Positions 21,302-41,677 of a stretch of 64,000 nucleotides of DNA are shown here, one piece after another; positions within the stretch are counted from its first letter, which is position 1, and each line of letters starts with the position of its first letter. This stretch comes from a virus. The position numbers were made by a program, and so were the translations under genes. Location: positions 6,708-70,707 of IMG/VR virus record IMGVR_UViG_3300025646_000030. The stretch is one strand, 5' to 3'. Under the pieces are notes generated by a model. It saw only the letters and a program-made list of their open reading frames with translations, was not told where the DNA came from and ran no database searches.

Positions 21302-21787
21302 TTAAGACCGGCGCTCCGCGGGAGTCATCAGAGCTGTGAACACATGGATAGGAATTCGCTGAGACTTCACCAAGTTACGTAGTACGTACTTGGTAACTTC
21401 ATCTGGACCCTCTGCAGCCTCTGAATCTGGCTTCCAATCAGGGAAGGGTAAAAAGTCCTTGACTTGTAGTTTAGGTGCCGGACCTTTTGACCCAGAAAAG
21501 CCGTGAGCTATCTGTATTAACGTTGTCGTTAATCTTGCTGTGGCGAGCGCTTGAAGATTAGCCTGCTCTTGTTCGTGGTCAAGAGCACGCTTTATTGCCC
21601 AGCGCACGACAGCTACAGGCGTGCGGACAAACCGCTCTCGGGGGAAGTCGTCCTTGAGCGGCGATGCCCGCAGCTTGAAATAGATATCGTCCCAATCAGT
21701 TAGAGGAGTTGTTAGGACTTTTTCGCATTCACTCAGGATTTCTTCCGGGGAGGGCTGAACACTTGCTCCTCCTCGTCCTCGTTTTTT
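21302..21787 (-). CDS. Tail assembly chaperone, frameshift extension (gpGT-like)
   Basis: -1 frame is open without stops from the slippery site at 21787 to 21302. Confidence 0.75.
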   Translation of the reverse strand, partial: KKRGRGGASVQPSPEEILSECEKVLTTPLTDWDDIYFKLRASPLKDDFPRERFVRTPVAVVRWAIKRALDHEQEQANLQALATARLTTTLIQIAHGFSGSKGPAPKLQVKDFLPFPDWKPDSEAAEGPDEVTKYVLRNLVKSQRIPIHVFTALMTPAERRS

Positions 21788-22278
21788 GCTTCATTCTCCT
21801 TCGGCCAACCATCCCGCTCCCATAGCACGAGCTCGAAAATCTGATCCATCAGCTTCGTGGGCATGTTCTCAGTGTCTCCTTGCTCCCAGTCCTTGAGTTG
21901 AATCCACTTGTCGCCATCAAGCTTCGATTCGCCTCGGTACTGCATAAACAGTGTCACGAATTCAACCCGTTGCTGGACAGCACTGATGCTATCAACTTGA
22001 AGGTCGTCCAATTCTGCTGCGTATTCGTACACGAGGTCTGTCTCCTCGCTGCCTACCTTGCCTAGCAGGTCAACAGCTTCTTTGGTGCTAATGCCTTTGT
22101 CTTTAGCGATACGTTGTGCAAGCTTGATTGACTTAAAGGTAGAGCGGGACTGTTTCTTGGAGAACTCCTCGATTCCCTTGGCTTCACCCGGAACTAGGTC
22201 ATGGTAAACAGGGAAGCGGAACGGTCCAATTTCGCAATAGGTGGTCGGCTTAAAAAGCAGTGCGCTGTACTTGCTCAT
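21733..22278 (-). CDS. Tail assembly chaperone (gpG-like)
   Basis: Between tail tube and tape measure genes; contains the slippery site. Confidence 0.8.
   Translation of the reverse strand: MSKYSALLFKPTTYCEIGPFRFPVYHDLVPGEAKGIEEFSKKQSRSTFKSIKLAQRIAKDKGISTKEAVDLLGKVGSEETDLVYEYAAELDDLQVDSISAVQQRVEFVTLFMQYRGESKLDGDKWIQLKDWEQGDTENMPTKLMDQIFELVLWERDGWPKENEAKNEDEEEQVFSPPRKKS
21781..21787 (-). other. -1 ribosomal frameshift heptamer A AAA AAC
   Basis: In-frame X XXY YYZ near the end of the chaperone gene. Confidence 0.75.
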
Positions 22279-22504
22279 TGCGGATTGGGAGAGTCACCTG
22301 CCACGCGCGATGAGGCGTTGGCTGGTTGACGAGCTCGGTGGGAATTTCAACCTCCAGACTAGCGTCGCCATACGCCAAGCGTATAAGATGGCTTTGGACG
22401 AGGGGTTCCAGATACAGGGCGCCGCAGTGAATTGTGGTGCCCTCTATCCGGCAATTCACCGCAAAAACAGTGTTAATTGGATCAATCAAAATGTCGTGTT
22501 GCAT
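22250..22504 (-). CDS. Hypothetical protein
   Basis: 84-aa ORF filling the gap before the chaperone. Confidence 0.55.
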   Translation of the reverse strand: MQHDILIDPINTVFAVNCRIEGTTIHCGALYLEPLVQSHLIRLAYGDASLEVEIPTELVNQPTPHRAWQVTLPIRNEQVQRTAF

Positions 22505-25586: not shown

Positions 25587-26504
25587 TCAGGCTTTCTCAA
25601 GAACGAGAGCGCTCTTGGGGTAGTACAGCGAGAGGCCGCCGATGCGAGCGTGAGCCGCAACGGTGAACTCCAGCGCCTGACGCAGCGGAGGCAGAAACTC
25701 CAGGGGCTGCGGGATGTGCAGTTGCAGCTTGTCGGGGCTGCGGTCGTACACCACGATCCGGTCCTTGGACAGGGAACCACCCGACTTACCGGCCTCGAGC
25801 TCGTTGATCGGCTCGATCGCTTGGATCATCGGGTTGGTGCGCAGGAAGAACTCCATCACCGTGGTGTCGGAGGTGGTGCTGCGCGGGGTGGTGGAGATGA
25901 TGCGGTACACGTTGTAGGGCACCAGCATCGTGTTGGGCATCTCCTTCATGTTGCTGTTCTGCACGAGGCGGGTGGGTGCCTCGTTGAGCAGGGCCAGCAT
26001 CTCGTCGGTGGTCACACCGGCGGTGTCGAACCACTTGTCGGGGACAAGCTTGTCGACCTGGTCGTTGTTGAAGAAGCCCTTCATGCCGGAGGGGGTATCG
26101 CCGAAGTAGGCGATCTCCTGCACTTTCTCCTCGTAGGCGCGGCGCACAGCATTGGCGCGGCGCTGCTCCAGGTTCATGCCGGGCACCATGGCGGCGGCAC
26201 GGGTCTCCTGGATGGTGTAGGCGAACGAGGCGCCGAGGGAGCGGACCGGGTGGGTCACTTCCTTGCGGAGCACGTCAGCGCGGGGCAGATCCTGCGCTTT
26301 GTCGCCGATCACCTTCATCGAGCCTTGCTTGTCGAAGACTCGGTAGGTGTAGGAATCGGCGCCGTTGCCCACTTCAGAAGAAATGGGGATGAGGGAGGAG
26401 TACTTGATGTCGGCGTACTCAACCTCGAAGGTGCGAGCCAGGATTGTCTCCAGCTCGCGAGCGAGAAAGACGCCGACCTCGTCGTTACGGATTTCGGTGG
26501 TCAT
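25587..26504 (-). CDS. Major capsid protein (DUF2184/HK97 fold)
   Basis: FLARELE, IAYFGD...GFFN, GG...YYP motifs. Confidence 0.9.
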   Translation of the reverse strand: MTTEIRNDEVGVFLARELETILARTFEVEYADIKYSSLIPISSEVGNGADSYTYRVFDKQGSMKVIGDKAQDLPRADVLRKEVTHPVRSLGASFAYTIQETRAAAMVPGMNLEQRRANAVRRAYEEKVQEIAYFGDTPSGMKGFFNNDQVDKLVPDKWFDTAGVTTDEMLALLNEAPTRLVQNSNMKEMPNTMLVPYNVYRIISTTPRSTTSDTTVMEFFLRTNPMIQAIEPINELEAGKSGGSLSKDRIVVYDRSPDKLQLHIPQPLEFLPPLRQALEFTVAAHARIGGLSLYYPKSALVLEKA

Positions 26505-27145: not shown

Positions 27146-28408
27146 TTACTTGGTGGCGGTGAGGGGACGCTTCCAGGCTTCCGCCTGCTTGCTCCGGTAG
27201 GTCTCCGCCGGGGAAGCAGTACCGCGACCAGCACCTTTCAGTGCGTCGCGGAGGGAAGTGGTGCTGTCGGCGCGGTCCTCCTTGGTTTCGGGCTCATCGC
27301 CCTCCTCCTCCTCCTCGGATTCGTCCTCGTCCTCCTCGGTGTCAGCGCGGGCGGCCAGGATGCCGTCCACCACGCCTTGGATGTAGGAGGGCTCAGCGTC
27401 CTCGCGAGGGGCAGAACCGGTCAGGTTTTCGAAGGCCTGGACATAGAGGTCTTCGTTGTCCACGCCGTCGAACTTGAAGTCCTCGGCGAAGGCAGGTGCC
27501 AGCTTCTGCAGCGTGGCGAGACGAGCGGCGACGAGCTGGTCGAGCTCGGCGGTGTCAATGCGGTCGGAAGAGGAGCCGTTCTCGAGCTCGGTGACACGCT
27601 CTTCGAGGGCGTCAGCACGACCTTCGGCTGCTTCCTTTTCGTAGGCCAGGTTGTCGATCTCTTCCTGCTGAGCGTCAAGCTTGGTGGCAAGCTCGTCGCG
27701 CTCAGCAGTTACAGACTTGAGCTGGCGCTCCACGTCCCGTGCGAAGGACTGGACCGCGCTAGCTGCTTCTGCGGGCAGATCGATCTCCAGGCCGTCGAGT
27801 TTGACGGTAGCCATTACGGGAGATGCAGGTGTACAGGGCTGGAGCGCCGGATCAAAGGAGACGGCATCAGCCGCATCCATGCGATCCATGAGCAGGCGAA
27901 CCTCCGGGCCAGCCCGGCCGCGGGGGACGATCGCGATGTGATTCACCCGGATGTTGCGCTGAACGCCCTCGTAGGACTCGCCCTCGGGGGTGATACCAGG
28001 AGTGGGGTCGAAATCGACCTTGTACCCGGCAGAGACTTCAGTGGCGTCTTTGCGTTTGATCTTCTCGATGGCGTCTTGGTCAGTAACGACCAGGGCGACT
28101 TCAACAAAACCGTCGTTGTACCGGACCTGGCTACCGGAGTAGCCGACCTGGAACTGCTTGGTGTTGGCTGAATCGAGAAGAACAGGTGGGTGACCCCACG
28201 TTGCGGGCTTCATGCCGAACGTGGATAGCGATTCCGGGGAGCTCACCTCTTCAGGTGGACGATATTCCCGGACCTGGGAGCCATCCGCACGCTTGTAGAG
28301 CTGTGTGCCCGTGCGCGCCGCACGACACCAGACGCGGAGATAACCCTCGTCGGTGGTTTCGCTGCCCGTAATGGGCGCGAAATCGTAGCGAGAAACGGAT
28401 GTTTCCAT
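27146..28408 (-). CDS. Prohead protease/scaffold (DUF2213)
   Basis: EGYL, ARTG.Q.Y, EYRPPEEV, HP, E.SAGY, NHIAIV.RGRAG motifs; coiled-coil acidic C-terminal half. Confidence 0.9.
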   Translation of the reverse strand: METSVSRYDFAPITGSETTDEGYLRVWCRAARTGTQLYKRADGSQVREYRPPEEVSSPESLSTFGMKPATWGHPPVLLDSANTKQFQVGYSGSQVRYNDGFVEVALVVTDQDAIEKIKRKDATEVSAGYKVDFDPTPGITPEGESYEGVQRNIRVNHIAIVPRGRAGPEVRLLMDRMDAADAVSFDPALQPCTPASPVMATVKLDGLEIDLPAEAASAVQSFARDVERQLKSVTAERDELATKLDAQQEEIDNLAYEKEAAEGRADALEERVTELENGSSSDRIDTAELDQLVAARLATLQKLAPAFAEDFKFDGVDNEDLYVQAFENLTGSAPREDAEPSYIQGVVDGILAARADTEEDEDESEEEEEGDEPETKEDRADSTTSLRDALKGAGRGTASPAETYRSKQAEAWKRPLTATK

Positions 28409-28852: not shown

Positions 28853-29140
28853 CTACGGGGCGAAGCCTTCAGCCCAGATCGAGTCGCGCTTCAGACGGGG
28901 TTGCTCGCCATGGCCGTTGCGAGCGCGGTTGGTGGAGGGATCTTCGAGGACGGTTTTTCCGGCCTCGGTGTGGGAAACGTCAGGGCCGCCTTTGCCGTCG
29001 ATGCCACGTCTGCGGCGCTCGCGGTTGAGTTCAGCGCGGCGCTTGCGTTCCGAGGGGCGTCGGTTGATCTCCGCTTGGGCGCGTTGGCGCTTGGCCCGGG
29101 CCTCGGGATGGGAGCGGTAGTAGGCGGCGGTGGAGGTCAT
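28853..29140 (-). CDS. Basic minimal HNH-like protein with C-terminal DSIWAEGF tag
   Basis: G.GGPDVSH...NRARN pattern; Arg-rich. Confidence 0.65.
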   Translation of the reverse strand: MTSTAAYYRSHPEARAKRQRAQAEINRRPSERKRRAELNRERRRRGIDGKGGPDVSHTEAGKTVLEDPSTNRARNGHGEQPRLKRDSIWAEGFAP

Positions 29141-29143
29141 GGG

Positions 29144-30583
29144 TCAGTCTTCCCACTCGTTGACAGTGAATGGGCGCTGTCCACGTCGGGTCGTGAGCGG
29201 GCGAGGCAGTGCAGTACCGAAGGGCTGTTGACGTTCGCGAGCAAGACGCGCATCGCGCTCGGGTTTGAGGGCGAGGAAGAGACGTGCGGGTTTGACACCT
29301 AGGCGGCGGGCTTCGCTCTTAATTGCAGTGGGGCGAAACTTGAGATCACGTTCAAACGCTGCACGGTCTGTTGAGCCTCGTTGAGCGGTCAAAATCCGCC
29401 GCGTAAGCCCTGGAATTCGAGGTTGATCCAGACTGCGAACAAACCGTGAACGGGGCATGCGCCCCTCAGTCCAGAGCAGGTCGGCCTCGAGCGCGTCGTG
29501 GTACCGGTTGACCGCTACCTCGAATTTTTCCCAAGAACGACTGTAGTCACGAGCTTGTGTTTCGATATTATCAAGCACACCTTTGAAGCGGTTATCTGTG
29601 AAGTCTCTTGCGTCTGCCTCGCTATACCCGACCATTGAAGGCAATCTACGTAGATCACTTAGTAAGTTTTCGACACCATCTCGGGAATGCACTGGGTGCC
29701 TGTAATCATCGATATCAGTAGAGTAACCAAAGTCAATAATGGCAACTTTGCGGCTACGCGGCTGCACCATGATGTTGCCGCTATGAATATCGCCATGTGC
29801 GAGACCCTCGGTGTGTAGTTTGCGGAACTCGCGGAGCATTTTGACTTTGACAATCGAAGGGGCGCTAGCTGCAGTGCCATAGGCGTCTGGGTGCACAGAG
29901 TCCAGGGTCTTGTAGCCCCTCATGTGAGAAAGGATCAGCGTCTGCGACCGCACGTCACCGTATTCGTCTGTGACAGCGTTCATGCCTAATGGTTGTGGGA
30001 CGTTGACCCCTTTGCCGTGTGCTTTATCCAGGCGGTCATATTCCCAGCTGACGTCGTCATCGTCTCCGTTGCGGAATAGCTTGACGCCGTACTTCTCAGA
30101 TGGATGGACGAAGTAGGTGCCGAATGCACCTTCCCCGGCTTGGCAACGCGGGTTGGGGATCGCCGCGTCAAACTTCGCCGGGGCTGTCAGCTTTCCCAGG
30201 CCATTGCCGCACTCCATGGCGCGACGACGCGCGTTGATCTTTTCCTGTACGTCCCACTTCTGCCCACCGGCGACGGCCTCATCGGCGATTTTCCGAGCCT
30301 GCTCAGGTGTGAGCTTTTGATTATTTCGGGCGCTATCAGGTCGTGCGCGCCGTTCTCCAACGGTTAGAGGGCGTTGCTTGTTGCGTATGTGTTTAGCCAA
30401 ATAGGCACCTCCTGTTAGTACGCCTGCGGCAAGAGCCACTTTAGCTGCGGTTTGGAGGTTTGAGTTGGTAGAGGAACCCGCTTTTTTACTGCATTTATGG
30501 TTCTTGGGAATAAACGACTCACCGCACGGCTTTCCCTTCCCGCCCTCGGGGGCGTCGATCCTTACCAGGCCGAGGACTTTCCC
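29144..30583 (-). CDS. Protein kinase module (Cys motif, TM, kinase), probably expressed by -1 frameshift
   Basis: GEGAFG, VKLF, HGDIHSGN, IIDFG kinase motifs; frame entered at G GGA AAG; the only annotated upstream start is a TTG inside the previous gene. Confidence 0.85.
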   Translation of the reverse strand, partial: GKVLGLVRIDAPEGGKGKPCGESFIPKNHKCSKKAGSSTNSNLQTAAKVALAAGVLTGGAYLAKHIRNKQRPLTVGERRARPDSARNNQKLTPEQARKIADEAVAGGQKWDVQEKINARRRAMECGNGLGKLTAPAKFDAAIPNPRCQAGEGAFGTYFVHPSEKYGVKLFRNGDDDDVSWEYDRLDKAHGKGVNVPQPLGMNAVTDEYGDVRSQTLILSHMRGYKTLDSVHPDAYGTAASAPSIVKVKMLREFRKLHTEGLAHGDIHSGNIMVQPRSRKVAIIDFGYSTDIDDYRHPVHSRDGVENLLSDLRRLPSMVGYSEADARDFTDNRFKGVLDNIETQARDYSRSWEKFEVAVNRYHDALEADLLWTEGRMPRSRFVRSLDQPRIPGLTRRILTAQRGSTDRAAFERDLKFRPTAIKSEARRLGVKPARLFLALKPERDARLARERQQPFGTALPRPLTTRRGQRPFTVNEWED

Positions 30584-31545
30584 GGCGTCAGTCCGTCGCG
30601 GCGGCTCGTTTTGCCCGAGCACTTCCACTTCGCCCTGGAGAGGCAAAGCGGAGTGTTGCGGTCCTTACCACCGCAGTCCTTGCCGTGGGACTTCATGTCA
30701 CCGAAGCTACGAGCGCAGTACCGGTCGCCTTTGTCGGTGCCGGGTGCGATCTTGTAGCCCTTGGCGCCGTAGCGCACCTTGTTCTTGCGGCCGGTCTTGG
30801 GGTTGGTGACGGTCTTGCTGTACTTCTTGCCGTCCTCGGTGTCGCGGCGGGTGGGGGGTTGGAGCTGGACCGGGGCGTAGTGCTGGATGAAGTTGTCGGT
30901 GCGGCCGAAGCCGCGGGCCTTGCGGCGGCGCGGTTGACCGGTTCGGGGATCGATCGGGATGGCCTCGCGCTGCGGGGTGAGATCGCCAGCGGTCAGCTTG
31001 GGCTGGGTTCCCTGGGGTAGGCGGCGTTGATCAGGGGCGCGGTAACCGGGCTCGAACCGACGGCGGGCGGCCTCGGTGCGGAGGCGCAGCTCGCGCAGGG
31101 TCGTTTTCGCAGCCATGCCGGTGGCTTCACCGGCGGCGGCCATCGTGTTACCGATTTGCCCAAGGCGCCGAACTTCTTCCCGGGCGGTCTGGGCGATACG
31201 GCCCTCGGCGTTTTTCACAGCAGCTGCGGTGTTGGCCCGCATGCGCTGCGTTTTGGACTGACGCGGAGGTGCTGCCTTGAGCAGGGCGCGAGGTGACGAT
31301 CCGGGAAGACGCGGTGCAGGCGAAGGACCCCGGAAGCCAGGCACCGAGCTCGAGGGGCGAGCGGTTCCTGAGCGACCCCGCTTGCTCAGCGCAGCGGCAC
31401 CGAGAGCGAGGGCACCGGCGGTCAAACCAATACCAGTAGCGATGGCGACTTTGGTGGCAGGGCCTTTTGTACATTTTTCGCCCTCGGAGATAGCTCCTTT
31501 GCCGCACTTGAGGTCGAGGCGTAACGCACTCGGGGTCAGTGTCAT
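30562..31545 (-). CDS. Modular basic protein (Cys motif, TM, C-terminal VRYG..YCAR..WKC domain)
   Basis: Starts MTLTPSALRLDLKCGKGAISEGEKCTKG. Confidence 0.8.
   Translation of the reverse strand: MTLTPSALRLDLKCGKGAISEGEKCTKGPATKVAIATGIGLTAGALALGAAALSKRGRSGTARPSSSVPGFRGPSPAPRLPGSSPRALLKAAPPRQSKTQRMRANTAAAVKNAEGRIAQTAREEVRRLGQIGNTMAAAGEATGMAAKTTLRELRLRTEAARRRFEPGYRAPDQRRLPQGTQPKLTAGDLTPQREAIPIDPRTGQPRRRKARGFGRTDNFIQHYAPVQLQPPTRRDTEDGKKYSKTVTNPKTGRKNKVRYGAKGYKIAPGTDKGDRYCARSFGDMKSHGKDCGGKDRNTPLCLSRAKWKCSGKTSRRDGLTPGKSSAW
30577..30583 (-). other. Candidate -1 frameshift heptamer G GGA AAG
   Basis: In frame, four sense codons before the stop of 30562-31545; the -1 frame is the kinase ORF. Confidence 0.65.
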
Positions 31546-32894
31546 AGCCCTAGTGCCTCCCAGTCGATGTCGAAACCATCGGCGTAGACGGAGTCGAGCT
31601 TGCCGCGTCGGCGCATAATCTCCTGGTATGCGGCGTTGATCTGCTGAGCCTTGCGAGGATCGCCGCCAGCGTCAGGGTGATTCTGGCGCATCAGCTGGAG
31701 CCACTTCTTCTTGATGTCGGCATCTGAGGCGGTCTCGGGTATATCGAGGTCTTTGAAAGGATTCTCGACGGCCTTGTTAGCCCCAACGTTGCGGCTGCCC
31801 TGACTGCCAGAAGCTGCGTTCTGCTTTGCACGTTGCTGTGCCTGCTCACGAGCTGCGTTCCACTGGCGTTTGTAGTTCTCGGCACCCATGACCCACTCAG
31901 CCTCTTTGGAGACCAGTTGGGTACGAGCACGGCGAGCTCCAATGAAGTTCCCCGCACCTAAATACATCAAAGTGCCGCCAGCCATAATGGCTCCGGCCTG
32001 CCTTTTCTTGGGTTCTTTGGCGTACTCGTTGGCTATTACACCGGCGCCTGCGATACCTAAGCCGGCGCCGGCAATTTCACCTGCGCGTGCGATACCACTG
32101 AGCTCCTGAAATACCTTCTTTCCCTGTGCAATTCCTTCATCTGGAGTCGCGCCTTTGCCCAGAGGTCTTGAAGCAATACGCTTTGCTGAACTATATTTTG
32201 CAACGCCCAGCGCAAGTCCCCCGAGGGCGGCGGCACCGCCGACACCAAGAGCTACATTGCGAATGGTGTTGTTTTCTTTTGACTTGGCTTTAGTGGCAGG
32301 ACCTTTGGTACATTTTTCGCCCTGGGAGATGGCGCCTTTGCCGCATTTGAGGTCTTGCCTTACTGCTTTAGGGGATAACGCTGAATCTGTGCGTCTCATA
32401 AATTTGTCAAAAGCATCTGGATCTTTAGCTAGCTCTCCTAACTCCTCGAAGGTCATAGCTCTACTTTTAAATGCGTCTTGAAACTTTTTGCTTTTGACTA
32501 CGTCTCGTATGGCTGCGCGCTTTGCCTTGTCGGCTTGCATTGCATGAGCTACTTCTTGCGGATTTTCTCGTACCCGGCGCTGGGCAGATTCCACGGCACG
32601 TTTACCTAAAGATTCAGCCTTGGCTCGGCGTGCTGCGATGGCAGCTGGATCGCGCGGGGGTGGCTTAGGAGGGGTCTTGGGGATATTCGGCACAGTGCGC
32701 TCATCCCCACCTCGAGGCTTTCTCCCTCGGCGGCGCAGCGCAATAGCCCCTGCGGCTAAACCCAAGCCAAGAGCGATAGGTGCAACTTTCTCAACAACCT
32801 CTTGAGCAGCGCCCTTAGTGCACTTTTCGCCCTTAGAAATTGCGCCTTTGCCGCATTTCAAGTCGTTCCTGACCGTACTCGGAGTAAGGGCCAT
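31542..32894 (-). CDS. Two-module protein with C-terminal DnaJ (J) domain
   Basis: Two LKCGKGAISxGEKCTKG units; NPFKDL.I...IKK.W..L...NHPD.GG...INAAY. Confidence 0.85.
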   Translation of the reverse strand: MALTPSTVRNDLKCGKGAISKGEKCTKGAAQEVVEKVAPIALGLGLAAGAIALRRRGRKPRGGDERTVPNIPKTPPKPPPRDPAAIAARRAKAESLGKRAVESAQRRVRENPQEVAHAMQADKAKRAAIRDVVKSKKFQDAFKSRAMTFEELGELAKDPDAFDKFMRRTDSALSPKAVRQDLKCGKGAISQGEKCTKGPATKAKSKENNTIRNVALGVGGAAALGGLALGVAKYSSAKRIASRPLGKGATPDEGIAQGKKVFQELSGIARAGEIAGAGLGIAGAGVIANEYAKEPKKRQAGAIMAGGTLMYLGAGNFIGARRARTQLVSKEAEWVMGAENYKRQWNAAREQAQQRAKQNAASGSQGSRNVGANKAVENPFKDLDIPETASDADIKKKWLQLMRQNHPDAGGDPRKAQQINAAYQEIMRRRGKLDSVYADGFDIDWEALGL

Positions 32895-32897
32895 CGC

Positions 32898-33857
32898 TCA
32901 CATCCCCAGTTGGGCGTAGTCGACTTTGAAGCCTTTTGCGTACATGCCGTCTTTGTAGCCGACGCTCTTGCGCCATTTCTTCTCTTTCTTCTCGTTAATC
33001 GCGTGTTGTTGAAGATCTGTGTTGCCAAAGGCGCCTACACGACGAGCGGCACCAAAGCCAGCTTGCGGACCGAACACCAGTGTAGAAGCAGCTACAGATG
33101 CGACTTTACCTGCGGTACTACCTTTTTCGTTTTTACCGCCTGTCATCCCTGTTGCCAGAGTTTTGCCGATGTTGTAGCCAGAGGTCCACTTAACCGTCTC
33201 TAGTGCGCCACGGCCAATACCTTTAGCGACTTGGCCTGCTTGAACAAGTGCGCTTGGACCTTGGGCTTTTTGTGATTTAACAGGGTCTAATTTACCTGTT
33301 TTTTGATTAAACGATGAATACTCCATCAGCTTACCCGACTTGGACGTGCGAGCAGCTATTTGTTGAGCGGCACGAATTTTAGGGTCTACCTTTTGCGCTG
33401 GACCCTTCGTGCATTTCTCGCCTTGAGAAATGGCGCCCTTGCCACATTTAAGGTCAAGGCGCTCTGCAGCGTCCAGTCGGGCTCGGATGTAAGAGCGGCT
33501 ACGTCCCTGGATGCCGAGATCGCAGGCAGCGAGGTATTCCTGCGGGGTCAAGGCGTCGTTGCGGTCCATCTTCTTGCCGCAGTTCCCATCGCACTTGCCT
33601 TTGCCCTTGCGGCCGCCGCATCCGCAGCCTTCGCCGTCCATGGGCTTCTTGCCGTACATCCCGCCGTCCATCGGCTTCTTGCCGTACATGCCGCCGTCCA
33701 TGGGGGCCTTGGTCTGCTTGGCCCCCTTTGCGGAGCGCTTGCGGTTGGTCTTGCCTTTTGGCATAGGCATTTCCTGATCGTCCTCGCCCTCGCGGATCTC
33801 GTCCGGGCCAGCCTCCATCTCCATTGGCGGGCGCTTTTTCATGGAAGAGGCAGGCAT
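32898..33857 (-). CDS. Modular Lys/Gly/Met-rich protein with Cys motif
   Basis: KKPMDGGMYG repeats; RLDLKCGKGAISQGEKCTKG; C-terminal DGMYAKGF. Confidence 0.8.
   Translation of the reverse strand: MPASSMKKRPPMEMEAGPDEIREGEDDQEMPMPKGKTNRKRSAKGAKQTKAPMDGGMYGKKPMDGGMYGKKPMDGEGCGCGGRKGKGKCDGNCGKKMDRNDALTPQEYLAACDLGIQGRSRSYIRARLDAAERLDLKCGKGAISQGEKCTKGPAQKVDPKIRAAQQIAARTSKSGKLMEYSSFNQKTGKLDPVKSQKAQGPSALVQAGQVAKGIGRGALETVKWTSGYNIGKTLATGMTGGKNEKGSTAGKVASVAASTLVFGPQAGFGAARRVGAFGNTDLQQHAINEKKEKKWRKSVGYKDGMYAKGFKVDYAQLGM
33632..33704. repeat. 30-bp tandem repeat (~2.4 copies) coding PMDGGMYGKK
   Basis: cgccgtccat(g/c)ggcttcttgccgtacat(c/g)c repeated. Confidence 0.9.
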
Positions 33858-33895
33858 GACTACAAGGCGGGACGCCTACAAGCGATGTGCTCAGG

Positions 33896-34777
33896 TTACC
33901 GCTGTTGTGATACGGGAGTCGGGGCGATCTGCTCAAAAACCGCTGCGCGGTTTAGGGATACACCCGATGCACTCACACGAGCCTGCGCATCTCGGACTTC
34001 GTCGCGGTGCCGTTCTCGGGAGGCGGCGTAATCCGGGTCCATATTGGCGACTTCGGCATCCCACGGCGCGAGGTAACAGCGACAGCGCGGGTGCAGAGGA
34101 ACACGAATATCTTGCCTACGATAAATGTGCCCTGCGCGAGGTACGCATAAAGGGCATGCTCTATCGTCAGCAGTGGCGTAATACATCACAAGCTCAATGC
34201 CCTGCGCTGCGTAGTACGTATTGGATGCATCGTTGTACGCACGAAGCGATTCGGTGCGCACGATCGCTTCAGCACGGGATTTCACCACGCTGAGGCGAGA
34301 GCGCAGGTCCTGGACCATGGCGTCAGTGGGTCGGCCTTCGGCAACACCTTGGGCGACGGTGAAGGCAGCGGTCTGGGCGAACTTCTCACCGTGTCTGCGT
34401 AGGTAGCCCTTGGCTTGGGCAGCAGCGGCGTAGGTCGCTTCGAGAGGGATGGAGACGTCAACGCGAGGCCCTGTCTTCACCTGACTGGTGAGCTCATCAG
34501 CGACGGTCAGGCCGTAGCGAGATGACGTGCCCGCGAGGTTGCGCAGGATGCGGTCATAGGCGTCCACCGCGTTGGGGTTGAACACTGGGATCAACATGCG
34601 GAACTCCTGGAGCAGGACCAGGTTTCGGCTCACGGGGTCGGCGTAGCCGATCCGCATATGCACCCGAGCGCGGCGAACCAGGCGGTTGAAACTCGCGTCC
34701 AGTACGCGATTCAACATAGTGATGGTGCCGTTCTCAGAGGTGCGCAGCAGTGCGTTGTAGCGCTCAAGTAGGTTCAT
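33896..34777 (-). CDS. Minor head morphogenesis protein (Mu gpF/SPP1 gp7 family)
   Basis: RAEAIVRTE, D.RAC.LC, PLHPRCRC motifs. Confidence 0.9.
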   Translation of the reverse strand: MNLLERYNALLRTSENGTITMLNRVLDASFNRLVRRARVHMRIGYADPVSRNLVLLQEFRMLIPVFNPNAVDAYDRILRNLAGTSSRYGLTVADELTSQVKTGPRVDVSIPLEATYAAAAQAKGYLRRHGEKFAQTAAFTVAQGVAEGRPTDAMVQDLRSRLSVVKSRAEAIVRTESLRAYNDASNTYYAAQGIELVMYYATADDRACPLCVPRAGHIYRRQDIRVPLHPRCRCYLAPWDAEVANMDPDYAASRERHRDEVRDAQARVSASGVSLNRAAVFEQIAPTPVSQQR

Positions 34778-37700
34778 GCGGCTAGTAAACGAGCGCGCTG
34801 AAACTGATAGGCAATAGTATATGCATCCCCGCGGTCACTCTTATTAGTTGCTTTAGCTGATGGACTTACTTGCTTTTCTAGGTCTTTACGAATCTGCTTT
34901 TGAGCGTTCTTAACACGATTGGCGTTGTAACCACCATACCAAGTTTCAATCATTCTGTCTTCAATCTCAGAGCGGATGCGTGCTTTGGTCGCTTCGCGTT
35001 GTGTCGGTGATTTAAGTGCAGCTGTGTATTCTTTCATTTTACTGGCAGCGTTATCCCCGAATAAAGTGTTTAGATCACCTTCCATGGGTTTGTTTTCACT
35101 AACTCGCCATACGAGTTCATTGAGAAGCTCGCCGGAGCGCTTCCTATCGACGTTCAGGTAGGACCAGGCTTCTCGCTGTAACTGCTTGTCGTACAGGTAG
35201 CTATTGCCCTCAGCTAAGTTTTGCTTCCAATTAGCTCCGTACTCTCGGTTATTTTTATCTATCTTTTCTGTGAGGCCATGCGGGATATTGTCATTGTTAA
35301 GTATACGGGTGTTTCCACCGGTGAAAGCCGCTCCTCCTGAAATCTTGTAGAAATCGTCGCCTTTGCTCACCCAAGTGCGCATGTTGTCGTCGCTATGACT
35401 GAACATCCCGAATGTGGGGCCTGCTACATTGACTACTTTCACATCGCGATAACCCATATCGTGCAGAATAGCTAGTGTTTCACTTGCTACATTGCCTCCA
35501 TTACTGTAGGACAAAATGTCTACGGGTTTACCAGTTAAACGGCGTTGAGCTACTACAAAAGCAGCGGCGCGGACAGCGTCAGGATTAAAACCTCGCTCGT
35601 CCACGTTTTTCCGTAAGTACTTAAAGCGGTCTTGTATGTCTTTAATACTATGCATAGCTTTAGCTGCTCCTTTGGCTTGCTCCCCTAGCCCTATAGCTGA
35701 GCCTAGTTTCTCCGCACTGCGAACAAAGGCTTCACGTTCTCGGACAACTAGATCATCAGGCACAGACGTAGTGGGCTGTGAAATGTTGTTGGCGTAAGGG
35801 AGTATGTCTCTGTCTCCCCAAATTTGACTGAATGCCTTGGCTTTAGCCAGCATGTGGCTACCTTGACCACGGTGCGTGAACTTATTGTCGTCTGCGTAGG
35901 ACAGCATTACGACAGCACCTTTACTATTAGGTGTCTGTCCATACCAAGCTGGTTCAGTATCGTTTGAACTAAATCCACGGTCTTGACCTTTGTCCTTAAA
36001 GTTGTAGACAGACGCTTCGAAATCACTGACTTCGTTCGGCTTTTTATTAAGACGTCTAGCAGCTCGCTCGCGGAATTGACGTTCCATCTCCACGGCTAGT
36101 TTTTCAGCTTCGATCGCTGACTTGGCAACATTTTTGCGATATGCGGAGATCTTGGCTCGCTTTGTGCCTAATACGGCTATTGCAGCAGCTCCCCCTGTAA
36201 CGGTCAGCGCTCCTGCGACAACCTTTGCTGTACTTAAATTGGACTTCTGCTCGGGTGCAGTTGCATTTGTATTAGGCTTTGCACTGGTTGTCTTAGTGCA
36301 CTTATAGTTATCGGGAATCGCAGACTGACCACACCGCTTGTCAACGCGAAATTCATGCAAATCTACAGCGTCGTTACGAATTAAGTCCGCAATTTGCTCA
36401 ATATGATTATCCCCCATTCTTGTGAACTTCCCTTTTGTTTTCATAGCAAACAGACGCTCATCGGAAGACAACGCTTGCCGAAAACCATATTTCTCGTAGA
36501 TCGAGCGGCGTTTCTTCCCTTTATTATCGTTAGCATAAGGAATGGCGGTTATGATTGAGTTGTCAGGGATCTGTTCCATCTGAGATTGGAACATTTTCTT
36601 CACTGTAGATGCTACACCTCTTGCATTACGTGACGCTGCAGGCGACTTGGCGTCAAATTCACCATCCACCCGAAATTGAGTGGAGTATGCGCGAGCTCCA
36701 CCAATGCTATCTTGAGGTTTCGTGTTATAGATAATCAAAGTTTCACCAACAGATCCTGTACTCAGTAGAGTTCCGTCCTCCATCTGCCAGTTACTAAAGT
36801 TGTCTTTATTGTTAACGGATGTAATCCGCCCACCTTTTGCCTTAAGAGCCAAGTGCGCTGCGCTAACCTTGGCATCTCCTACTAAGCGGCGCACAGGCTC
36901 TTGGAAGTTCTTGGGAAGACGACTTATTCCGGTATCTACTTCTGCAGTAGATAGTGTTTTAATAGTACGTTTGCTTAATTCAGCAACTGTCTGCTGAGTC
37001 TGAGTGCGCACTACATTGTTCGCTACACGACGACCAGCGCGAGCTCGTACAGCAGTACGACGGTAAAGCTCCCGATTATTCGTGCGCAGAGATCGCCGCG
37101 CCTGTAGTGTCCCCTGTCGGGCTGTCCGTGCGATTGTCTTACGATTGCGTACTGCTCCTACAACAGAAGCAACACCCCCTGCAACAGCTGCAATTTTAGC
37201 TGCTTTATCTAAAGCCCCACCGCCTGACTTTAGATGGCAAGTTGATGTCGGCGGAATACATAAGTTTCCGCATTTCTGATTGGGAGGAAAGCATGTGAGA
37301 CCGGGCTGTGCTGCTCCTTTTACACGGTTAGCAGCTTCCTCAGATTGAGGAGGTGTGTTCTTAGTGCATTTTGCTTTTTCGGGAATACCAGACTTGCCGC
37401 AACGCTTATCTAGTCGAGCAACTGTCTCTAAGTAAGCTGCAACTCGAGGTGTGAAATGTTGTTCTTCGTCGTCGCGATTGCCATACTGAGCGCGGCGGCG
37501 CTCGTACTCGGCTTGAGCTGCTTCTCGGGTGGCGTAACGCGGTGTGCCGTCAGGGTTCTTCTGACGCATCATCGATGCGATGACTTGGGCAGGGGTGCGC
37601 CGACGCGCGGGGCGGCCGCCCGCGGGGGCGGGTGTTTGCGGTTGGGGCTTACGTCGTCGAGGACCCGGGCGGATCTCGATCTCCGCAGAAGTGAAACCGT

Positions 37701-39261
37701 ACTCGGTCTTGAGTAGCTGGATCGCTTGTGCGGGGGTCAGTTGTTGCTTACCTGAAAGCTCCCTGGCTGCTTGTACCGCAAGCCGATCGGTAATGGTATA
37801 GGGGGACTTGCCTGTGCCTGCTACTTTTGTATGGTAGTAATCAAGAAGAAAAAGTGCGTCATGTTCTGCACCTTTGCTCACGGTGTTTGGCTTAGTGCTT
37901 GTTTGCATTAAGTAATCTATACGCCTACGTTCTGCCGCTTTGCGTAGCTCTAATAGTCCGGGTTGTTCCGCTATTACATTTTTTTCAAACTGTTCACGCT
38001 CAGCACGCGGACGGTCAAAGGCAGGTGCATCTGCTGCTTGGATGAGGCTTTTGCTCTGCTCTTTGTAGTATTTATCGAAAAATTCGACATGGCCATTATA
38101 GATCTCTCGTGCGGCGGAGCTAGGCGCGAGATTACGTATAACTGTGTCTACATACTTGGCATGCGCGGCACGTTGTCTTTCGTTAGTGATCGCTCTTGTG
38201 GATCGACTAACGAAGGCGTCGCGCTGGTTGCTATCGATGTACTGCGCACCTGGACGTCCGAGCACCTTGAACCCTTGCTGCTTGGCTAGCTGCAGAAATG
38301 CATCCCGATCGGATTCGATTCTATCCGTGATAGCATTGACATAGTCTGCTCCTATTGTTGTTGGCGATAAGTTTAAATTCCATTCTGTATTCATAAAAGC
38401 GTGAGCAGTCGGGACTGCAAATACACTTGTCCCGTCTTTGTGGGTAGCTCCCCAGAATGCTGTGCGGTGCTTTGTATTCCATTCGTAAAACGTATTAGAA
38501 CTACCTTGATTATCAACAACTTTTAGGGCTGCGTTTAAACTACTGCTCCCGGCTACCCAGCTACGTGGGATCGTAGTGGCGGGAATGCCGGACTCGGGAT
38601 TCGCGGCGTAGCTCCTGTTGCGCTGAGTGCGCCCAGCAATGCGAGAAAGATTTCTAGCTTCTGCACTGGCTGCTCGGCTGCGCGTATAGGCGCGCGCTTG
38701 TCCTATGAATGGAGTTCGGTCCAGGATCGCTCCGATTCCCTGCGCCACTGCGTAATCGATTTTGGCGCCAGCACCCTTGCGATAACCAAAAACGTCTCCA
38801 GCTTTAAGGCCGCTATGAAGAGCAAGCCCTCCAGCTACGACTGAGACAGGTATTACTACCTTGGACCAGTTGTTTTCTACCCATTCTTTGAATTCACCTT
38901 TTTCTTTTAATGTACCAGGCTTAAGCTTGACAGCCCCGCGTACAAATGAGCGCTTGCTCGATTCCAGCTCAGAAAAACTGCCGGTACGAGCAAAACGACC
39001 TAAACGCTTAATTCCCCGTTCTATGTTTGCAATGCCACTTACTGGATCTGTTCTCTTTGCTGCAAGATGAGGATCATTGCCTTGACCCTTTAAGCGACAG
39101 TTCCATTCAGGTGGGATACACCTGTTACCGCACTTAACGTTGGGTGGATTGCACTGTACTAAAGTGCGCGTTTTGCCTGTGCGGAAGTCCAATCGCTGCT
39201 TAGTCGCAAGATAAGCGGCGGCGCGGGCCTGCGCTGCATCAATCGGGGTCTTCTCGTCCAT
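34774..39261 (-). CDS. 1495-aa multi-module protein (4 Cys motifs, 3 hydrophobic helices, GNAT-like and alpha/beta-hydrolase-like domains)
   Basis: See findings; SYSNGG nucleophile elbow; RRSIYEKYGF. Confidence 0.8.
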   Translation of the reverse strand: MDEKTPIDAAQARAAAYLATKQRLDFRTGKTRTLVQCNPPNVKCGNRCIPPEWNCRLKGQGNDPHLAAKRTDPVSGIANIERGIKRLGRFARTGSFSELESSKRSFVRGAVKLKPGTLKEKGEFKEWVENNWSKVVIPVSVVAGGLALHSGLKAGDVFGYRKGAGAKIDYAVAQGIGAILDRTPFIGQARAYTRSRAASAEARNLSRIAGRTQRNRSYAANPESGIPATTIPRSWVAGSSSLNAALKVVDNQGSSNTFYEWNTKHRTAFWGATHKDGTSVFAVPTAHAFMNTEWNLNLSPTTIGADYVNAITDRIESDRDAFLQLAKQQGFKVLGRPGAQYIDSNQRDAFVSRSTRAITNERQRAAHAKYVDTVIRNLAPSSAAREIYNGHVEFFDKYYKEQSKSLIQAADAPAFDRPRAEREQFEKNVIAEQPGLLELRKAAERRRIDYLMQTSTKPNTVSKGAEHDALFLLDYYHTKVAGTGKSPYTITDRLAVQAARELSGKQQLTPAQAIQLLKTEYGFTSAEIEIRPGPRRRKPQPQTPAPAGGRPARRRTPAQVIASMMRQKNPDGTPRYATREAAQAEYERRRAQYGNRDDEEQHFTPRVAAYLETVARLDKRCGKSGIPEKAKCTKNTPPQSEEAANRVKGAAQPGLTCFPPNQKCGNLCIPPTSTCHLKSGGGALDKAAKIAAVAGGVASVVGAVRNRKTIARTARQGTLQARRSLRTNNRELYRRTAVRARAGRRVANNVVRTQTQQTVAELSKRTIKTLSTAEVDTGISRLPKNFQEPVRRLVGDAKVSAAHLALKAKGGRITSVNNKDNFSNWQMEDGTLLSTGSVGETLIIYNTKPQDSIGGARAYSTQFRVDGEFDAKSPAASRNARGVASTVKKMFQSQMEQIPDNSIITAIPYANDNKGKKRRSIYEKYGFRQALSSDERLFAMKTKGKFTRMGDNHIEQIADLIRNDAVDLHEFRVDKRCGQSAIPDNYKCTKTTSAKPNTNATAPEQKSNLSTAKVVAGALTVTGGAAAIAVLGTKRAKISAYRKNVAKSAIEAEKLAVEMERQFRERAARRLNKKPNEVSDFEASVYNFKDKGQDRGFSSNDTEPAWYGQTPNSKGAVVMLSYADDNKFTHRGQGSHMLAKAKAFSQIWGDRDILPYANNISQPTTSVPDDLVVREREAFVRSAEKLGSAIGLGEQAKGAAKAMHSIKDIQDRFKYLRKNVDERGFNPDAVRAAAFVVAQRRLTGKPVDILSYSNGGNVASETLAILHDMGYRDVKVVNVAGPTFGMFSHSDDNMRTWVSKGDDFYKISGGAAFTGGNTRILNNDNIPHGLTEKIDKNNREYGANWKQNLAEGNSYLYDKQLQREAWSYLNVDRKRSGELLNELVWRVSENKPMEGDLNTLFGDNAASKMKEYTAALKSPTQREATKARIRSEIEDRMIETWYGGYNANRVKNAQKQIRKDLEKQVSPSAKATNKSDRGDAYTIAYQFQRARLLAA

Positions 39262-41132
39262 CAGTACTGCTCCCAGCCGACGCGGAGGGCTTCAGCTTCG
39301 CCCTCGGAAACAGGGGAGAGCCCAGCTACATTCTGCCGTGGGTAGAAAGAAGCGACAGCCCGCTTGGCCGCCTGCGGCGTACGGAAGCCGATGGTGTACG
39401 GACCTTCGACGAGCTCGCCTTGATGATCGAACCGGGCTCGGTGAAGTTTGCGCCCGTGAGCGCGCTGGGGGCCAATGATGAACATCGGTGCATGACCCTG
39501 AGCGTCGATCCGTTGCCCATCAGGAGAAACAAGAGCGCCAATGCGGCTTCCATCTTTCTGAGCAGCAACACGGATCCGGTAACCATGCGCCTGATGGAAC
39601 TCGAGGGAGTCGAAGGCGAAGCGGGGATCTTCTTGTGGCGCTTCTTGCGCCGCCGCTGGATCAACTTCCACTTCGTCGGGTGGCGCACCCTGAGGATTCT
39701 CACCGGGCGCTCCCCCTGCCCCCATGAGCTGAGGGTTTTGTAGCGCTTGTGCTTGAGCTTCCATATTCATCATCTGCATTTGGAAGTCCGCTTCAGCCTT
39801 CACCTGCATCTGTTCGCTGAACTGTTCGTCCAACGTGGTTTCGATGCTGTACTCCGTCCCTCCGAAGCGGGCCTCGCGGATCTCGAGTGGGTTCAGCACG
39901 CCCATGTTCACGTATTGCGAGTCCACCTGAGCCATCTGCAGGCGCAGCTCAGCCTTCTCCTTGTCGGTTTCAGTGAAGACGCTCGGGAAGTGGACGCTCC
40001 ACTTCTGCGGGGGCCGTCCTCGGGTTGGTCCTTCGCGCGAGGCGAGGATGTAGGTGAAGACCTCAGTGACCGCGGTACGGCAGTAGAGCTCCTGCCACTG
40101 CTCCACCAGCGAGGCCCAGACTCGCTCCTCGAAGCGGCCTTCCTTGCCCAGGCCGCCCGGGGAGTCGCCCATCAGGATCGAAGCGGGCCAGCCGGTGGCC
40201 GCTTGGAGATCCTTCACGAAGGGATCGGTCGCCGAGGCGATGTTGCTCAGGGCTCGGTTGAGGAACTGCAGCTCCTCCTCCACGTCGACCACCATGCCGC
40301 CGTAGACGCTGCGGCTGAGGTTGTTGGCCTCCAGGCGCTTGCGTAGATCGGCCTCGTTGCCGGATGCGATCCGGTTGAACAGGCCAGGGATCTTGTGGAC
40401 GAACAGGTCCGAGTCGGTGGTCATCGACTCGAGGCCAGACAGGGCGCTCTCGTAGCGCTTATAGGCCTCCCACACGAGCTGGAGAACCGGCAGGCCCCAT
40501 CCGGTGTTCCGTGCTCGGACGTTCCAGGGGAGGTAGAGCCCGTCGAAACGTGCCACGCGGGATGCGTGGATGCGCACATTGACATAGCCGCTGGTCTGCT
40601 CGGGCGACACCCGCTGGGATGTCGTGATCCGGTAGTGCGACGGCTTGCTGTAGTCGATGATCGAGAAGTCCTCGGGGATCAGCTCGTGCCGAGACAGGGG
40701 GATGTACCCCCGCACGGAGCGGATCCGGGCGAGATCGGCAGGTTCCTCAGGTGGGAGGCCGTCATCGATGAGCAGGACCAGGCCGGCGCCGCCGTAGAGG
40801 CGCTGCAGCTTGACGACCTCGGCGAAGGCGTGGTGGAACTGCGTGGCCTTGAGGTACTCCTCGAAGATGGAGATCAGATCGTTGGCGTCGTCCTGCTCAT
40901 CGCCACCGAGCTTGATCGTGACCAGGTGGCGCAGGATCTCATCTGAGATGGTGTCGACGTAGCGCCGTGGGATGCCGTGAATGTAGAGGGCTTCGAGCTC
41001 GGCCTCGGAGAGGATGGGCTTGGCACCGACGGAAGTAGCAACCGTTTTGTCCTTGGTTGCTACTCCCATCCCGGACAGTACATTTACTAACGCACCATCG
41101 TTCCGGTAAGTATCAGCATTCGTCGTATCCAC
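39261..41132 (-). CDS. Portal protein (DUF1073) with C-terminal extension
   Basis: RLYGGA, IHASRV.RFDG, GWG, P.SILMG.SPGGL motifs. Confidence 0.9.
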   Translation of the reverse strand: MDTTNADTYRNDGALVNVLSGMGVATKDKTVATSVGAKPILSEAELEALYIHGIPRRYVDTISDEILRHLVTIKLGGDEQDDANDLISIFEEYLKATQFHHAFAEVVKLQRLYGGAGLVLLIDDGLPPEEPADLARIRSVRGYIPLSRHELIPEDFSIIDYSKPSHYRITTSQRVSPEQTSGYVNVRIHASRVARFDGLYLPWNVRARNTGWGLPVLQLVWEAYKRYESALSGLESMTTDSDLFVHKIPGLFNRIASGNEADLRKRLEANNLSRSVYGGMVVDVEEELQFLNRALSNIASATDPFVKDLQAATGWPASILMGDSPGGLGKEGRFEERVWASLVEQWQELYCRTAVTEVFTYILASREGPTRGRPPQKWSVHFPSVFTETDKEKAELRLQMAQVDSQYVNMGVLNPLEIREARFGGTEYSIETTLDEQFSEQMQVKAEADFQMQMMNMEAQAQALQNPQLMGAGGAPGENPQGAPPDEVEVDPAAAQEAPQEDPRFAFDSLEFHQAHGYRIRVAAQKDGSRIGALVSPDGQRIDAQGHAPMFIIGPQRAHGRKLHRARFDHQGELVEGPYTIGFRTPQAAKRAVASFYPRQNVAGLSPVSEGEAEALRVGWEQY

Positions 41133-41312: not shown

Positions 41313-41633
41313 ATGCTGGACCACCACATCGATGGGTCCCATCTCTGCTCAAAACGCTTTGCCAAGCTGCGATTTCGCCAGGACATCCTGAGCTCGTGGG
41401 GTGAGTGCTGCGCCTACTGCGGCGCACCGGCCGGCACTCTTGACCACGTCCGTGCGCGTAGACGCGGTGGGCCGACGACCCGCCGCAACCTCGTTGCCGC
41501 CTGCGCTCCGTGCAACCAGGCGAAAGGCTCTGAGGATTGGCGGGCCTGGTTCAGGGCGCAGTGCTTCTGGGATGCGCAACGAGAGGACGCGATCTACGAG
41601 TGGATGGGGGCTGCGAGGATCGAACTCGCCTGA
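41313..41633 (+). CDS. HNH endonuclease
   Basis: CAYCG, TLDHV...GG, NLVAAC..CN..KG. Confidence 0.9.
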   Translation: MLDHHIDGSHLCSKRFAKLRFRQDILSSWGECCAYCGAPAGTLDHVRARRRGGPTTRRNLVAACAPCNQAKGSEDWRAWFRAQCFWDAQREDAIYEWMGAARIELA

Positions 41634-41677
41634 TGCCGATTATGAGTCGGCTGCTCTCACCAGATAGCTAAGCCCCC
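41605..41677 (-). tRNA. tRNA with CAU anticodon, probably tRNA-Ile2 (elongator Met not excluded)
   Basis: Cloverleaf GGGGGCT/AGCCCCC-A; anticodon arm GCCGA-CTCATAA-TCGGC; T-loop TTCGATC; G1-C72 paired, so not initiator. Confidence 0.9.

Follow-up and report, generated by a model that had tools for sequence, protein, structure and literature searches.

A conserved candidate −1 frameshift site ahead of a kinase reading frame in the head-assembly block of an uncultured aquatic phage

The heptamer GGGAAAG is the slippery sequence of the phage lambda genes G/GT. It is listed as such in Table 1 of PMC3296357, which confirms what a preceding inspection of the letters alone (the sequence-only reading) had stated for lambda gpG/GT, and PMC5009743 gives a G/GT ratio of 30:1 and describes G_GGA_AAG as highly shift-prone in Escherichia coli. 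Here, we analysed a stretch of 64,000 nucleotides (nt), referred to as the window, which covers positions 6,708 to 70,707 of the 70.7-kilobase (kb) IMG/VR virus record IMGVR_UViG_3300025646_000030, has a G+C content of 58% and belongs to an uncultured phage from water. On the minus strand, which holds its head-assembly block, the same heptamer lies close to the end of a gene for a protein of 327 amino acids (aa). The heptamer is likely to act as a −1 programmed ribosomal frameshift site that has been conserved and yields an 800-aa fusion of the 327-aa protein with a kinase.

The likeness to lambda G/GT consists in GGGAAAG itself, the near zero-frame stop and a predicted C-terminally extended product, and no strong downstream structure is evident at the kinase site. 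The surroundings and the appended part are different: the kinase site is found in the head block, with the portal/MuF genes on one side and the prohead protease on the other, whereas that of lambda is found between tail tube and tape measure, and the extension would be an enzyme of about 480 aa rather than a tail-binding domain. With a distance of about 9 kb to the tape measure gene (15617-21271), the kinase site does not have the position of a tail chaperone. A separate G/GT-like pair of open reading frames (ORFs) is present at 21302-22293 on the minus strand, directly upstream of this 1884-aa tape measure gene, with a candidate A_AAA_AAC at about 21782-21788 and a −1 ORF that opens at GCA AAA AAC. 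This pair, whose heptamer differs from that of the kinase site, is probably the one implied when the sequence-only reading called the kinase site a second frameshift.

In retroviral and totiviral Gag-Pol, the few ribosomes that shift frame attach an enzyme to a structural or packaged protein made in large amounts, which fixes the ratio of the two, may bring the enzyme into the particle and is followed by proteolytic separation (PMC5009743). The present locus would follow this logic but belongs to a tailed DNA phage with a bacterial-type heptamer. The same source describes 10A/10B of T7/T3, the capsid frameshifts of Listeria and Lactobacillus phages and carboxysome CsoS2A/B, where a −1 or +1 shift likewise sets the proportion in which two versions of one particle-associated protein are made; in these cases a short or Ig-like domain is added to a shell or scaffold protein, whereas here a whole enzyme with its own targeting-like module would be added. 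Polyvalent proteins of phages and conjugative elements are multi-module effectors encoded by portal/MuF genes and thought to be packaged, with kinase, GNAT and peptidase modules and cassette-like shuffling (Iyer et al. 2017, PMC5512222); the word "frameshift" does not occur in the text of PMC5512222. The window likewise encodes putative multi-domain effectors next to portal/MuF, and the portal neighbours (the 1495-aa, MuF, DnaJ and kinase proteins) share a repeated module. The modules are here, in contrast, spread over several genes with a repeated linker, one joint of which appears to be a recoding site. The literature, supplements excepted, yielded no description of a frameshift that joins head or packaged proteins to a kinase. 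To our knowledge, programmed frameshifts of tailed phages have been found almost only in tail chaperone genes and a few capsid genes. The locus is apparently a known recoding trick in a new setting, that of an enzyme in the head-assembly block.

Anatomy of the junction

The junction is made up of the following features.

30562-31545, minus strand: zero-frame gene of the 327-aa protein, with an N-terminal linker module and hydrophobic helix, a body without assigned function and a small KWxC domain, ending in ...SRRDGLTPGKSSAW before the stop
30583-30577, minus strand: slippery heptamer G_GGA_AAG in the X_XXY_YYZ phase of the 327-aa gene, at Pro321-Gly322-Lys323
30562-30576, minus strand: zero-frame tail SSAW and TAA (TAA at 30564-30562), four codons past the heptamer, predicted to be reached only by non-shifting ribosomes
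29144-30583, minus strand: ORF of the −1 frame, 479 codons when counted from the heptamer with the re-read GGG AAA as its first two
30386-30565, minus strand: kinase N-terminal linker module VRIDAPEGGKGKPCGESFIPKNHKCSKK, then Gly/Ala-rich hydrophobic helix AAKVALAAGVLTGGAYLAKHI, upstream of any start codon after the heptamer
29600-30136, minus strand: protein-kinase-like catalytic domain, matched by Pfam and PHROG kinase families
30592-30846, minus strand: small conserved domain (EDGKKY...YGAKGYKIAPGT...CLSRAKWKCSG) with RRD on both sides, also found as stand-alone viral proteins of about 80 aa
30536-30530, minus strand: second GGGAAAG, which encodes G-K of GKGKPCG and is in phase with the kinase frame, where a slip would lead to termination after 4 codons
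30620-30646, minus strand: candidate −1 frame starts inside the upstream gene, TTG 30646-30644, GTG 30628-30626 and GTG 30622-30620

The 3′ end of the 327-aa gene reads ACG CCG GGA AAG TCC TCG GCC TGG TAA, and both the in-phase G GGA AAG at its end and the location of the kinase ORF in the −1 frame, as the sequence-only reading had them, are borne out. The −1 frame is open from 30664 down to its stop at 29146-29144, and the predicted trans-frame product comprises 323 + 477 = 800 aa. The fusion junction SRRDGLTPGK followed by VLGLVRIDAPEGGKGKPCG was likewise recovered as described, and so were the paralogous junctions RRTDSALSPKAVRQDLKCG, MALTPSTVRND and MTLTPSALRLD. Ribosomes translating the 327-aa gene would reach CCG GGA AAG, where a fraction would slip back by one base, the glycine transfer RNA (tRNA) exchanging GGA for GGG and tRNA-Lys exchanging AAG for AAA. 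These ribosomes would continue in the −1 frame through the linker module, the hydrophobic helix and the kinase domain to give the 800-aa fusion, and those that do not slip would terminate four codons later. Since the kinase has no conserved start of its own, slippage would be its route of expression and would set its amount relative to that of the upstream protein.

The −1 ORF matches APH (4e-10), Kdo (2e-07), Pkinase (1e-05), RIO1 (5e-05) and also ABC1 in Pfam, the scores of APH and Kdo exceeding the Pfam cut-offs, and its matches to Ser/Thr kinases in the PDB are weak. All kinase motifs are present: the GEGAFG loop (171-176), the lysine in VKLF (188-191), HGDIHSGN (284-291) and IDFG (304-307). 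The 327-aa protein returned nothing from Pfam or PHROGs, and an Atlas search with it found only unnamed viral clusters of about 80 aa, with DUF6321 and DUF5754 as weak leads.

The frequency of GGGAAAG in the window is by itself weak evidence, with 7 occurrences against 7.41 expected from shuffled sequences and hence no enrichment. From that frequency we estimate the chance of an in-phase heptamer within the 28-codon overlap of one gene pair at about 0.002. On sequence comparison, the heptamer is distinguished from a chance occurrence by its phase, its position and above all its conservation in relatives. The second GGGAAAG (30536-30530) looks incidental, since relatives use other Gly/Lys codons there, and could serve as an internal control.

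Conservation of the site among relatives

Searching IMG/VR with the kinase gave 12 loci, 8 of which have the kinase N-terminus on the contig; two others begin inside the kinase (L009, L010), and matches of 40-47 residues in giant-virus bins (L012, L013) were set aside. The ACGCC GGGAAAG junction, with the kinase ORF in −1, is shared by six of the 8 (L003-L008), including two in which an extra module between junction and kinase is part of a single −1 ORF of 729 and 761 codons (L006, L007). In L004 the body of the 327-aa protein is absent, and the heptamer is carried by an 18-codon ORF (VSLTPASLRRDGALTPGK, then the stop) whose GTG start overlaps the stop of the DnaJ gene and which ends right after the heptamer, with the kinase in −1. 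This arrangement shows that the site could act as a pure attenuator of kinase synthesis; piggy-back packaging would not be the whole story, because the upstream partner is here only an 18-codon leader. In L011 (40% identity) the kinase is fused in frame to a homologue of the 95-aa gene and uses the ATG of the latter. A stand-alone kinase was seen in none of the 8 loci with a complete N-terminus and not in the window. The 95-aa gene itself (MTSTAAYYRSHPEA...) is located downstream of the kinase in the window (28853-29140, minus strand), and in relatives it is either fused in frame upstream of the kinase or is the −1 product of the same heptamer junction (L011, L049, L081, L030, L118).

A search blind to the heptamer was made in IMG/VR with an alignment of the small domain, the query ending before the heptamer, and the best 80 of 139 relatives were examined together with the window (81 in total). 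In 26 of the 81 the heptamer is in phase, the zero frame stops 0-4 codons past it and the −1 ORF is 97-761 codons long. By blastp to the window's proteins, 22 of these −1 ORFs encode the kinase (one at 28% only), 2 only the homologue of the 95-aa protein and 2 neither. In 7 of the 81 the heptamer is kept and the −1 ORF has only 30-31 codons; in these relic contigs (L025, L034, L035, L037, L038, L046, L014) the heptamer and the first four −1 codons (VLGL) remain and the downstream cargo is deleted just past the site. One of the 81 is an in-frame fusion (the L002 contig) and 47 are without an in-phase heptamer. Among those listed of this last group, the domain gene mostly ends in SRR, SRRS, SRRA or SRRD(T/ED/EGV) before the stop and the next gene has its own start, and in L019 and L022 an ATGA start-stop overlap occupies exactly the place of the heptamer. 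In L052 the junction is present, the upstream frame is disturbed and the contig ends.

A pattern scan for the standard junction gave 52 stretches, 37 homologous and 15 unrelated. Five of the unrelated IMG/VR contigs (L108, L134, L143, L145, L146) have ACGCCGGGAAAGT at the end of a 99-169-codon ORF, with a stop after 0-1 codons and a −1 ORF of 82-84 codons, and look like ordinary tail-chaperone pairs. When the loci of the kinase search, the small-domain search and the pattern scan were merged by contig name, 32 IMG/VR contigs besides the window had the heptamer, a zero-frame stop within 0-4 codons and a −1 ORF that either is long or continues to the contig end, 7 were relics and 1 was in frame. 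The conservation of heptamer and frame offset in related phages, which the sequence-only reading had named as a check, accordingly held in 32 further contigs, and kinase identity to the window among relatives of the frameshift form goes down to 57%. The site is kept in four upstream contexts, namely the KWxC domain, the 18-codon leader of L004, ..IDPARQRRDAALTPGK (L105/L107) and ..PPTRRDAEDGVLTPGK (L150). In L030 the heptamer is found in another codon context, CTG GGA AAG.

Conservation was also assessed at the level of codons, using 27 loci that reduce to 22 distinct junctions of 159 nt, which are kin and so cannot be counted as independent trials. Both heptamer codons are invariant (GGA 22/22, AAG 22/22), and just before them Pro is always CCG and Thr always ACG (21/21 each). 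An adjacent conserved Leu is written CTC in 13, CTG in 4, CTT in 2 and CTA in 1, one Arg position CGC in 16, CGT in 4 and CGG in 1, and a neighbouring Asp uses 2 codons. The conserved Gly-Lys pair 15 codons downstream, which includes the second GGGAAAG of the window, varies as well (GGA 10, GGC 7, GGG 1, GGT 1; AAG 17, AAA 2). The only constant neighbours of the heptamer are ACGCC before it, T after it (21 of the 22 junctions) and the nearby stop. Past the heptamer the residues of the −1 frame are kept (Val 21/22, Gly 18/22, Leu 21/22, Asp 21/22; in the PCG motif Pro 20, Cys 19 and Gly 19 of 22), and since they are conserved with synonymous change, this region would be translated in that frame.

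Alternative routes to the kinase

A kinase gene of its own, beginning at TTG 30646 or GTG 30628/30622 and reading through a heptamer that merely codes for Pro-Gly-Lys, is improbable. TTG and GTG codons do exist in the −1 frame of the window, a GTG at −48/−66 occurs in about half of the related junctions, and phage genes commonly overlap. The sequence-only reading was correct in placing a TTG (30646) inside the upstream gene and incomplete in naming it as the only annotated upstream start, as GTG 30628 and 30622 are also in the −1 frame; beyond the heptamer, the first start codon of the window is a GTG at +144 nt, inside the hydrophobic helix. The GTGs are, however, forced by the conserved zero-frame Lys-Trp codons (K-W-K-C), the candidates have no convincing ribosome-binding site ahead of them as far as the sequence can be read, and 12 of the 32 related contigs either have a stop between those codons and the heptamer or lack any start. 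The −1 frame of these 12 contigs is free of ATG, GTG and TTG over the whole interval that begins at the preceding stop and extends to +100 nt, and an own start of the kinase is excluded there because none of these codons is found ahead of the conserved N-terminal motif. The −1 stop lies 4 (L003), 10 (L005), 5 (L008) and 4 (L006) codons upstream of the heptamer, and the next ATG, GTG or TTG comes at +126 (L003), +183 (L005), +183 (L008) and +132 nt (L006), which is beyond the conserved GKPCG...KC motif. A separate start would also leave unexplained the invariant silent positions of GGA and AAG and the placement of the LTP half of the linker in the other frame. Even less probable is that ribosomes terminate at the stop 0-4 codons past the heptamer and restart nearby in −1 at a non-canonical codon. 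It agrees with such reinitiation that the zero-frame stop is always very near (0-4 codons in 26/26 loci) and that ATGA/GTGA overlaps occur at other gene pairs of the block, for example in L019, L022 and L051. The 12 contigs without ATG, GTG or TTG near the stop in the −1 frame do not fit it, and V-L/A-G-L between heptamer and stop is conserved as protein although a downstream restart needs no such residues. The lineage with an extra G, considered next, joins the two frames exactly at the heptamer, which also speaks against a restart.

In L002, the closest relative of the window (87%), the junction reads GCCGGGGAAAG with one extra G, and a single frame reads ...SRRDGLTPGKVVGLARIDAPKGGKGKPCG... 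across it. The extra-G reading through the junction, ...GLTPGKVVGLARID..., is present in two assemblies (L002 and L154) with 3 mismatches in 4077 nt; a pattern scan for the extra G gave 7 stretches in IMG/VR, only the contig of L002 being homologous, and one more in the metagenome collection (L154). This lineage is most simply explained by a derived +1 G insertion, since the window and its two next closest kinase relatives (83%) have the frameshift form. Plain in-frame fusion among relatives had been put forward in the sequence-only reading as an observation against recoding; it occurs in one lineage, whereas all others, including the next closest, keep the frameshift. For this reason we read the in-frame lineage as support for the fusion product, and by its genes it shows the fusion to be a viable, working product. 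It also suggests that the fusion is tolerated at full level, and the earlier proposal that recoding keeps a toxic kinase at a low ratio is left without support.

The extra G in the G run of the closest relative (L002/L154) could raise the suspicion of an artefact or of decay, i.e. a 1-nt assembly or sequencing error in the window or a fusion gene disrupted not long ago and turned into a pseudogene, which we regard as the least credible of the alternatives. Many metagenomes contributed to the 32 other contigs that show the same offset, among which kinase identity goes down to the level given above, and a pseudogene would not be expected to keep the downstream ORF open over 460-760 codons and every kinase motif in place. 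The assembly indel that the sequence-only reading had wished to see excluded was not found: three further assemblies of this sequence, Logan contigs of 3 runs which come from three samples and studies that may include the source and which as contigs hide rare variants, each cover 30200-31000 without a single difference or gap, and none of 4 Logan runs lists an insertion or deletion at the region. In run X7, an estuary metagenome, one Logan contig aligns on both sides and skips 30560-30596 (37 nt, containing the heptamer and stop), and may represent a relative with another linker.

Several observations weigh against programmed frameshifting. None of the runs listed for the stretch is an RNA run. 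No stimulatory RNA structure was convincing: folds of 7 single sequences had z-scores of −0.4 to +1.5, an alignment fold of 7 sequences gave −11.3 kcal/mol with 1 covarying pair, and one of 20 rows (19 valid) gave −3.2 kcal/mol with 0 covarying pairs. Nor was a consistent Shine-Dalgarno-like stretch seen upstream at the junctions. Bacterial frameshift sites do not all have a stimulatory element. The shift-proneness of G_GGA_AAG is documented for E. coli, and the host of this phage may differ in its tRNA-Lys set and in its shiftiness at A_AAG. Some independent initiation is possible, given that the window and about half of the relatives hold GTG or TTG upstream in the −1 frame. The seven heptamer contigs without a long −1 ORF indicate that short-term retention can be mere ancestry, a point that adds to the kinship of the junctions in the codon test, and the in-frame lineage weakens the rationale that the kinase must be kept low.

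The comparison nonetheless shows the heptamer site, its frame offset and, in relatives, the absence of a separate start for the kinase; that slippage really happens, and its efficiency, we infer. The sequence-only reading is, as a whole, partly supported, and its core of a −1 shift, a fusion and a rebuilt linker motif strongly so.

Linker modules and the head-assembly block

The segment at which the two frames meet belongs to a repeated module. At least 8 copies of the motif R-x-D-x-(K/R)-C-G-x-x-x-I-x-x-x-x-K-C-(T/S)-K, each with a Gly/Ala-rich hydrophobic helix behind it, are present in the block: three in the 1495-aa protein, one in the 319-aa protein, two in the 450-aa protein and one each at the N-termini of the 327-aa protein and the kinase ORF. 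At the DNA level there are two repeat families, one with 4 copies of 87 nt and one with 3 copies of 59 nt that includes the kinase copy; the kinase linker module belongs to the family D2, common to two sites in the 1495-aa gene. The motif is preceded by (R)RD-x-(A)L(T/S)P where it is internal and by M-(A/T)-LTP where it begins a gene. In the kinase linker the two halves are split between frames, with the LTP half in the zero frame and the VRID...CG half in −1. The junction would then be a portable linker, (R)RD-x-(A)LTPGK followed by V-x-G-L-x-R-x-D-A-P...GKPCG, which recurs with different modules before and after it in a swappable block bounded by the portal/MuF genes and the prohead protease.

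Modules of the block (29000-39300) have (R)RD on their flanks, and clean deletions between two such motifs are seen in relatives: L004 has lost the whole body of the 327-aa gene, and L105/L107 and L150 have lost the small KWxC domain. Because relatives show such deletions, the linkers appear to act as recombination points. The boundary between RRD and (A)LTP may be a processing site, as suggested by gene ends of the type ..SRR before the stop, by gene starts of the type M(A/T)LTP and by the concept of polyvalent proteins. From the gene position and the same analogy we infer that proteins of the block are packaged in the capsid as cargo, and by analogy the dose of the kinase may matter and be both fixed and low. 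Tentatively, and with somewhat less than even confidence, we propose that the linker is a portable "recoding joint" with its own heptamer that recombines among the cargo cassettes of aquatic phages. It would provide Gag-Pol-style dosing of capsid-loaded, host-delivered enzymes, i.e. the kinase and, in relatives, other modules, and the leader site of L004 would be a pure translational attenuator.

The remaining genes of the block were assigned as follows.

41735-43216, minus strand: terminase, first in the order of the head-assembly block
39261-41132, minus strand: portal, from Pfam/PHROG scans
31542-39261, minus strand: genes upstream of the 327-aa gene, all with the linker module, for the 1495-aa protein, a MuF-like protein, a 319-aa protein and a 450-aa DnaJ-domain protein
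27146-28408, minus strand: DUF2213 prohead protease/scaffold gene downstream of the block, from Pfam/PHROG
25587-26504, minus strand: major capsid gene, from Pfam/PHROG

The order on the minus strand is terminase, portal, 1495-aa, MuF-like, 319-aa, 450-aa and 327-aa genes, kinase ORF, two small ORFs, protease and capsid. The 450-aa protein (31542-32894, minus strand) has two linker-module copies and two hydrophobic helices and ends in a DnaJ (J) domain, which phage head blocks do not usually encode. In the 319-aa gene, the peptide PMDGGMYGKK is repeated by three 30-nt units in tandem (33632-33721, minus strand), and the sole tRNA of the window is a tRNA-Met at 41605-41677 on the minus strand.

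The nearest capsid protein is that of Synechococcus phage S-CBS4, with 55% identity, and the portal-to-protease interval of S-CBS4 holds other genes and is without this block. No cultured relative with the block turned up by tblastn in 50,697 phage records, where the kinase and the 1495-aa protein both gave zero matches, and the pattern scan of 185,579 species genomes found no relative of the kinase. By blastn, the region matched cultured phages only over 150-220 nt of the small domain, the phages being Roseobacter phage CRP-212 and S-TIM5-like cyanophages.

Natural controls are at hand in the in-frame lineage, the leader-only variant and the seven relic sites without a downstream ORF. For annotation, the rule would be that such kinases are not orphan ORFs with odd starts. 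The locus further allows one to test whether recoding is tied to the dosing of effectors that are putatively delivered by the virion, and a conserved frameshift controlling an enzyme of the head block would add a new class of phage frameshifts.

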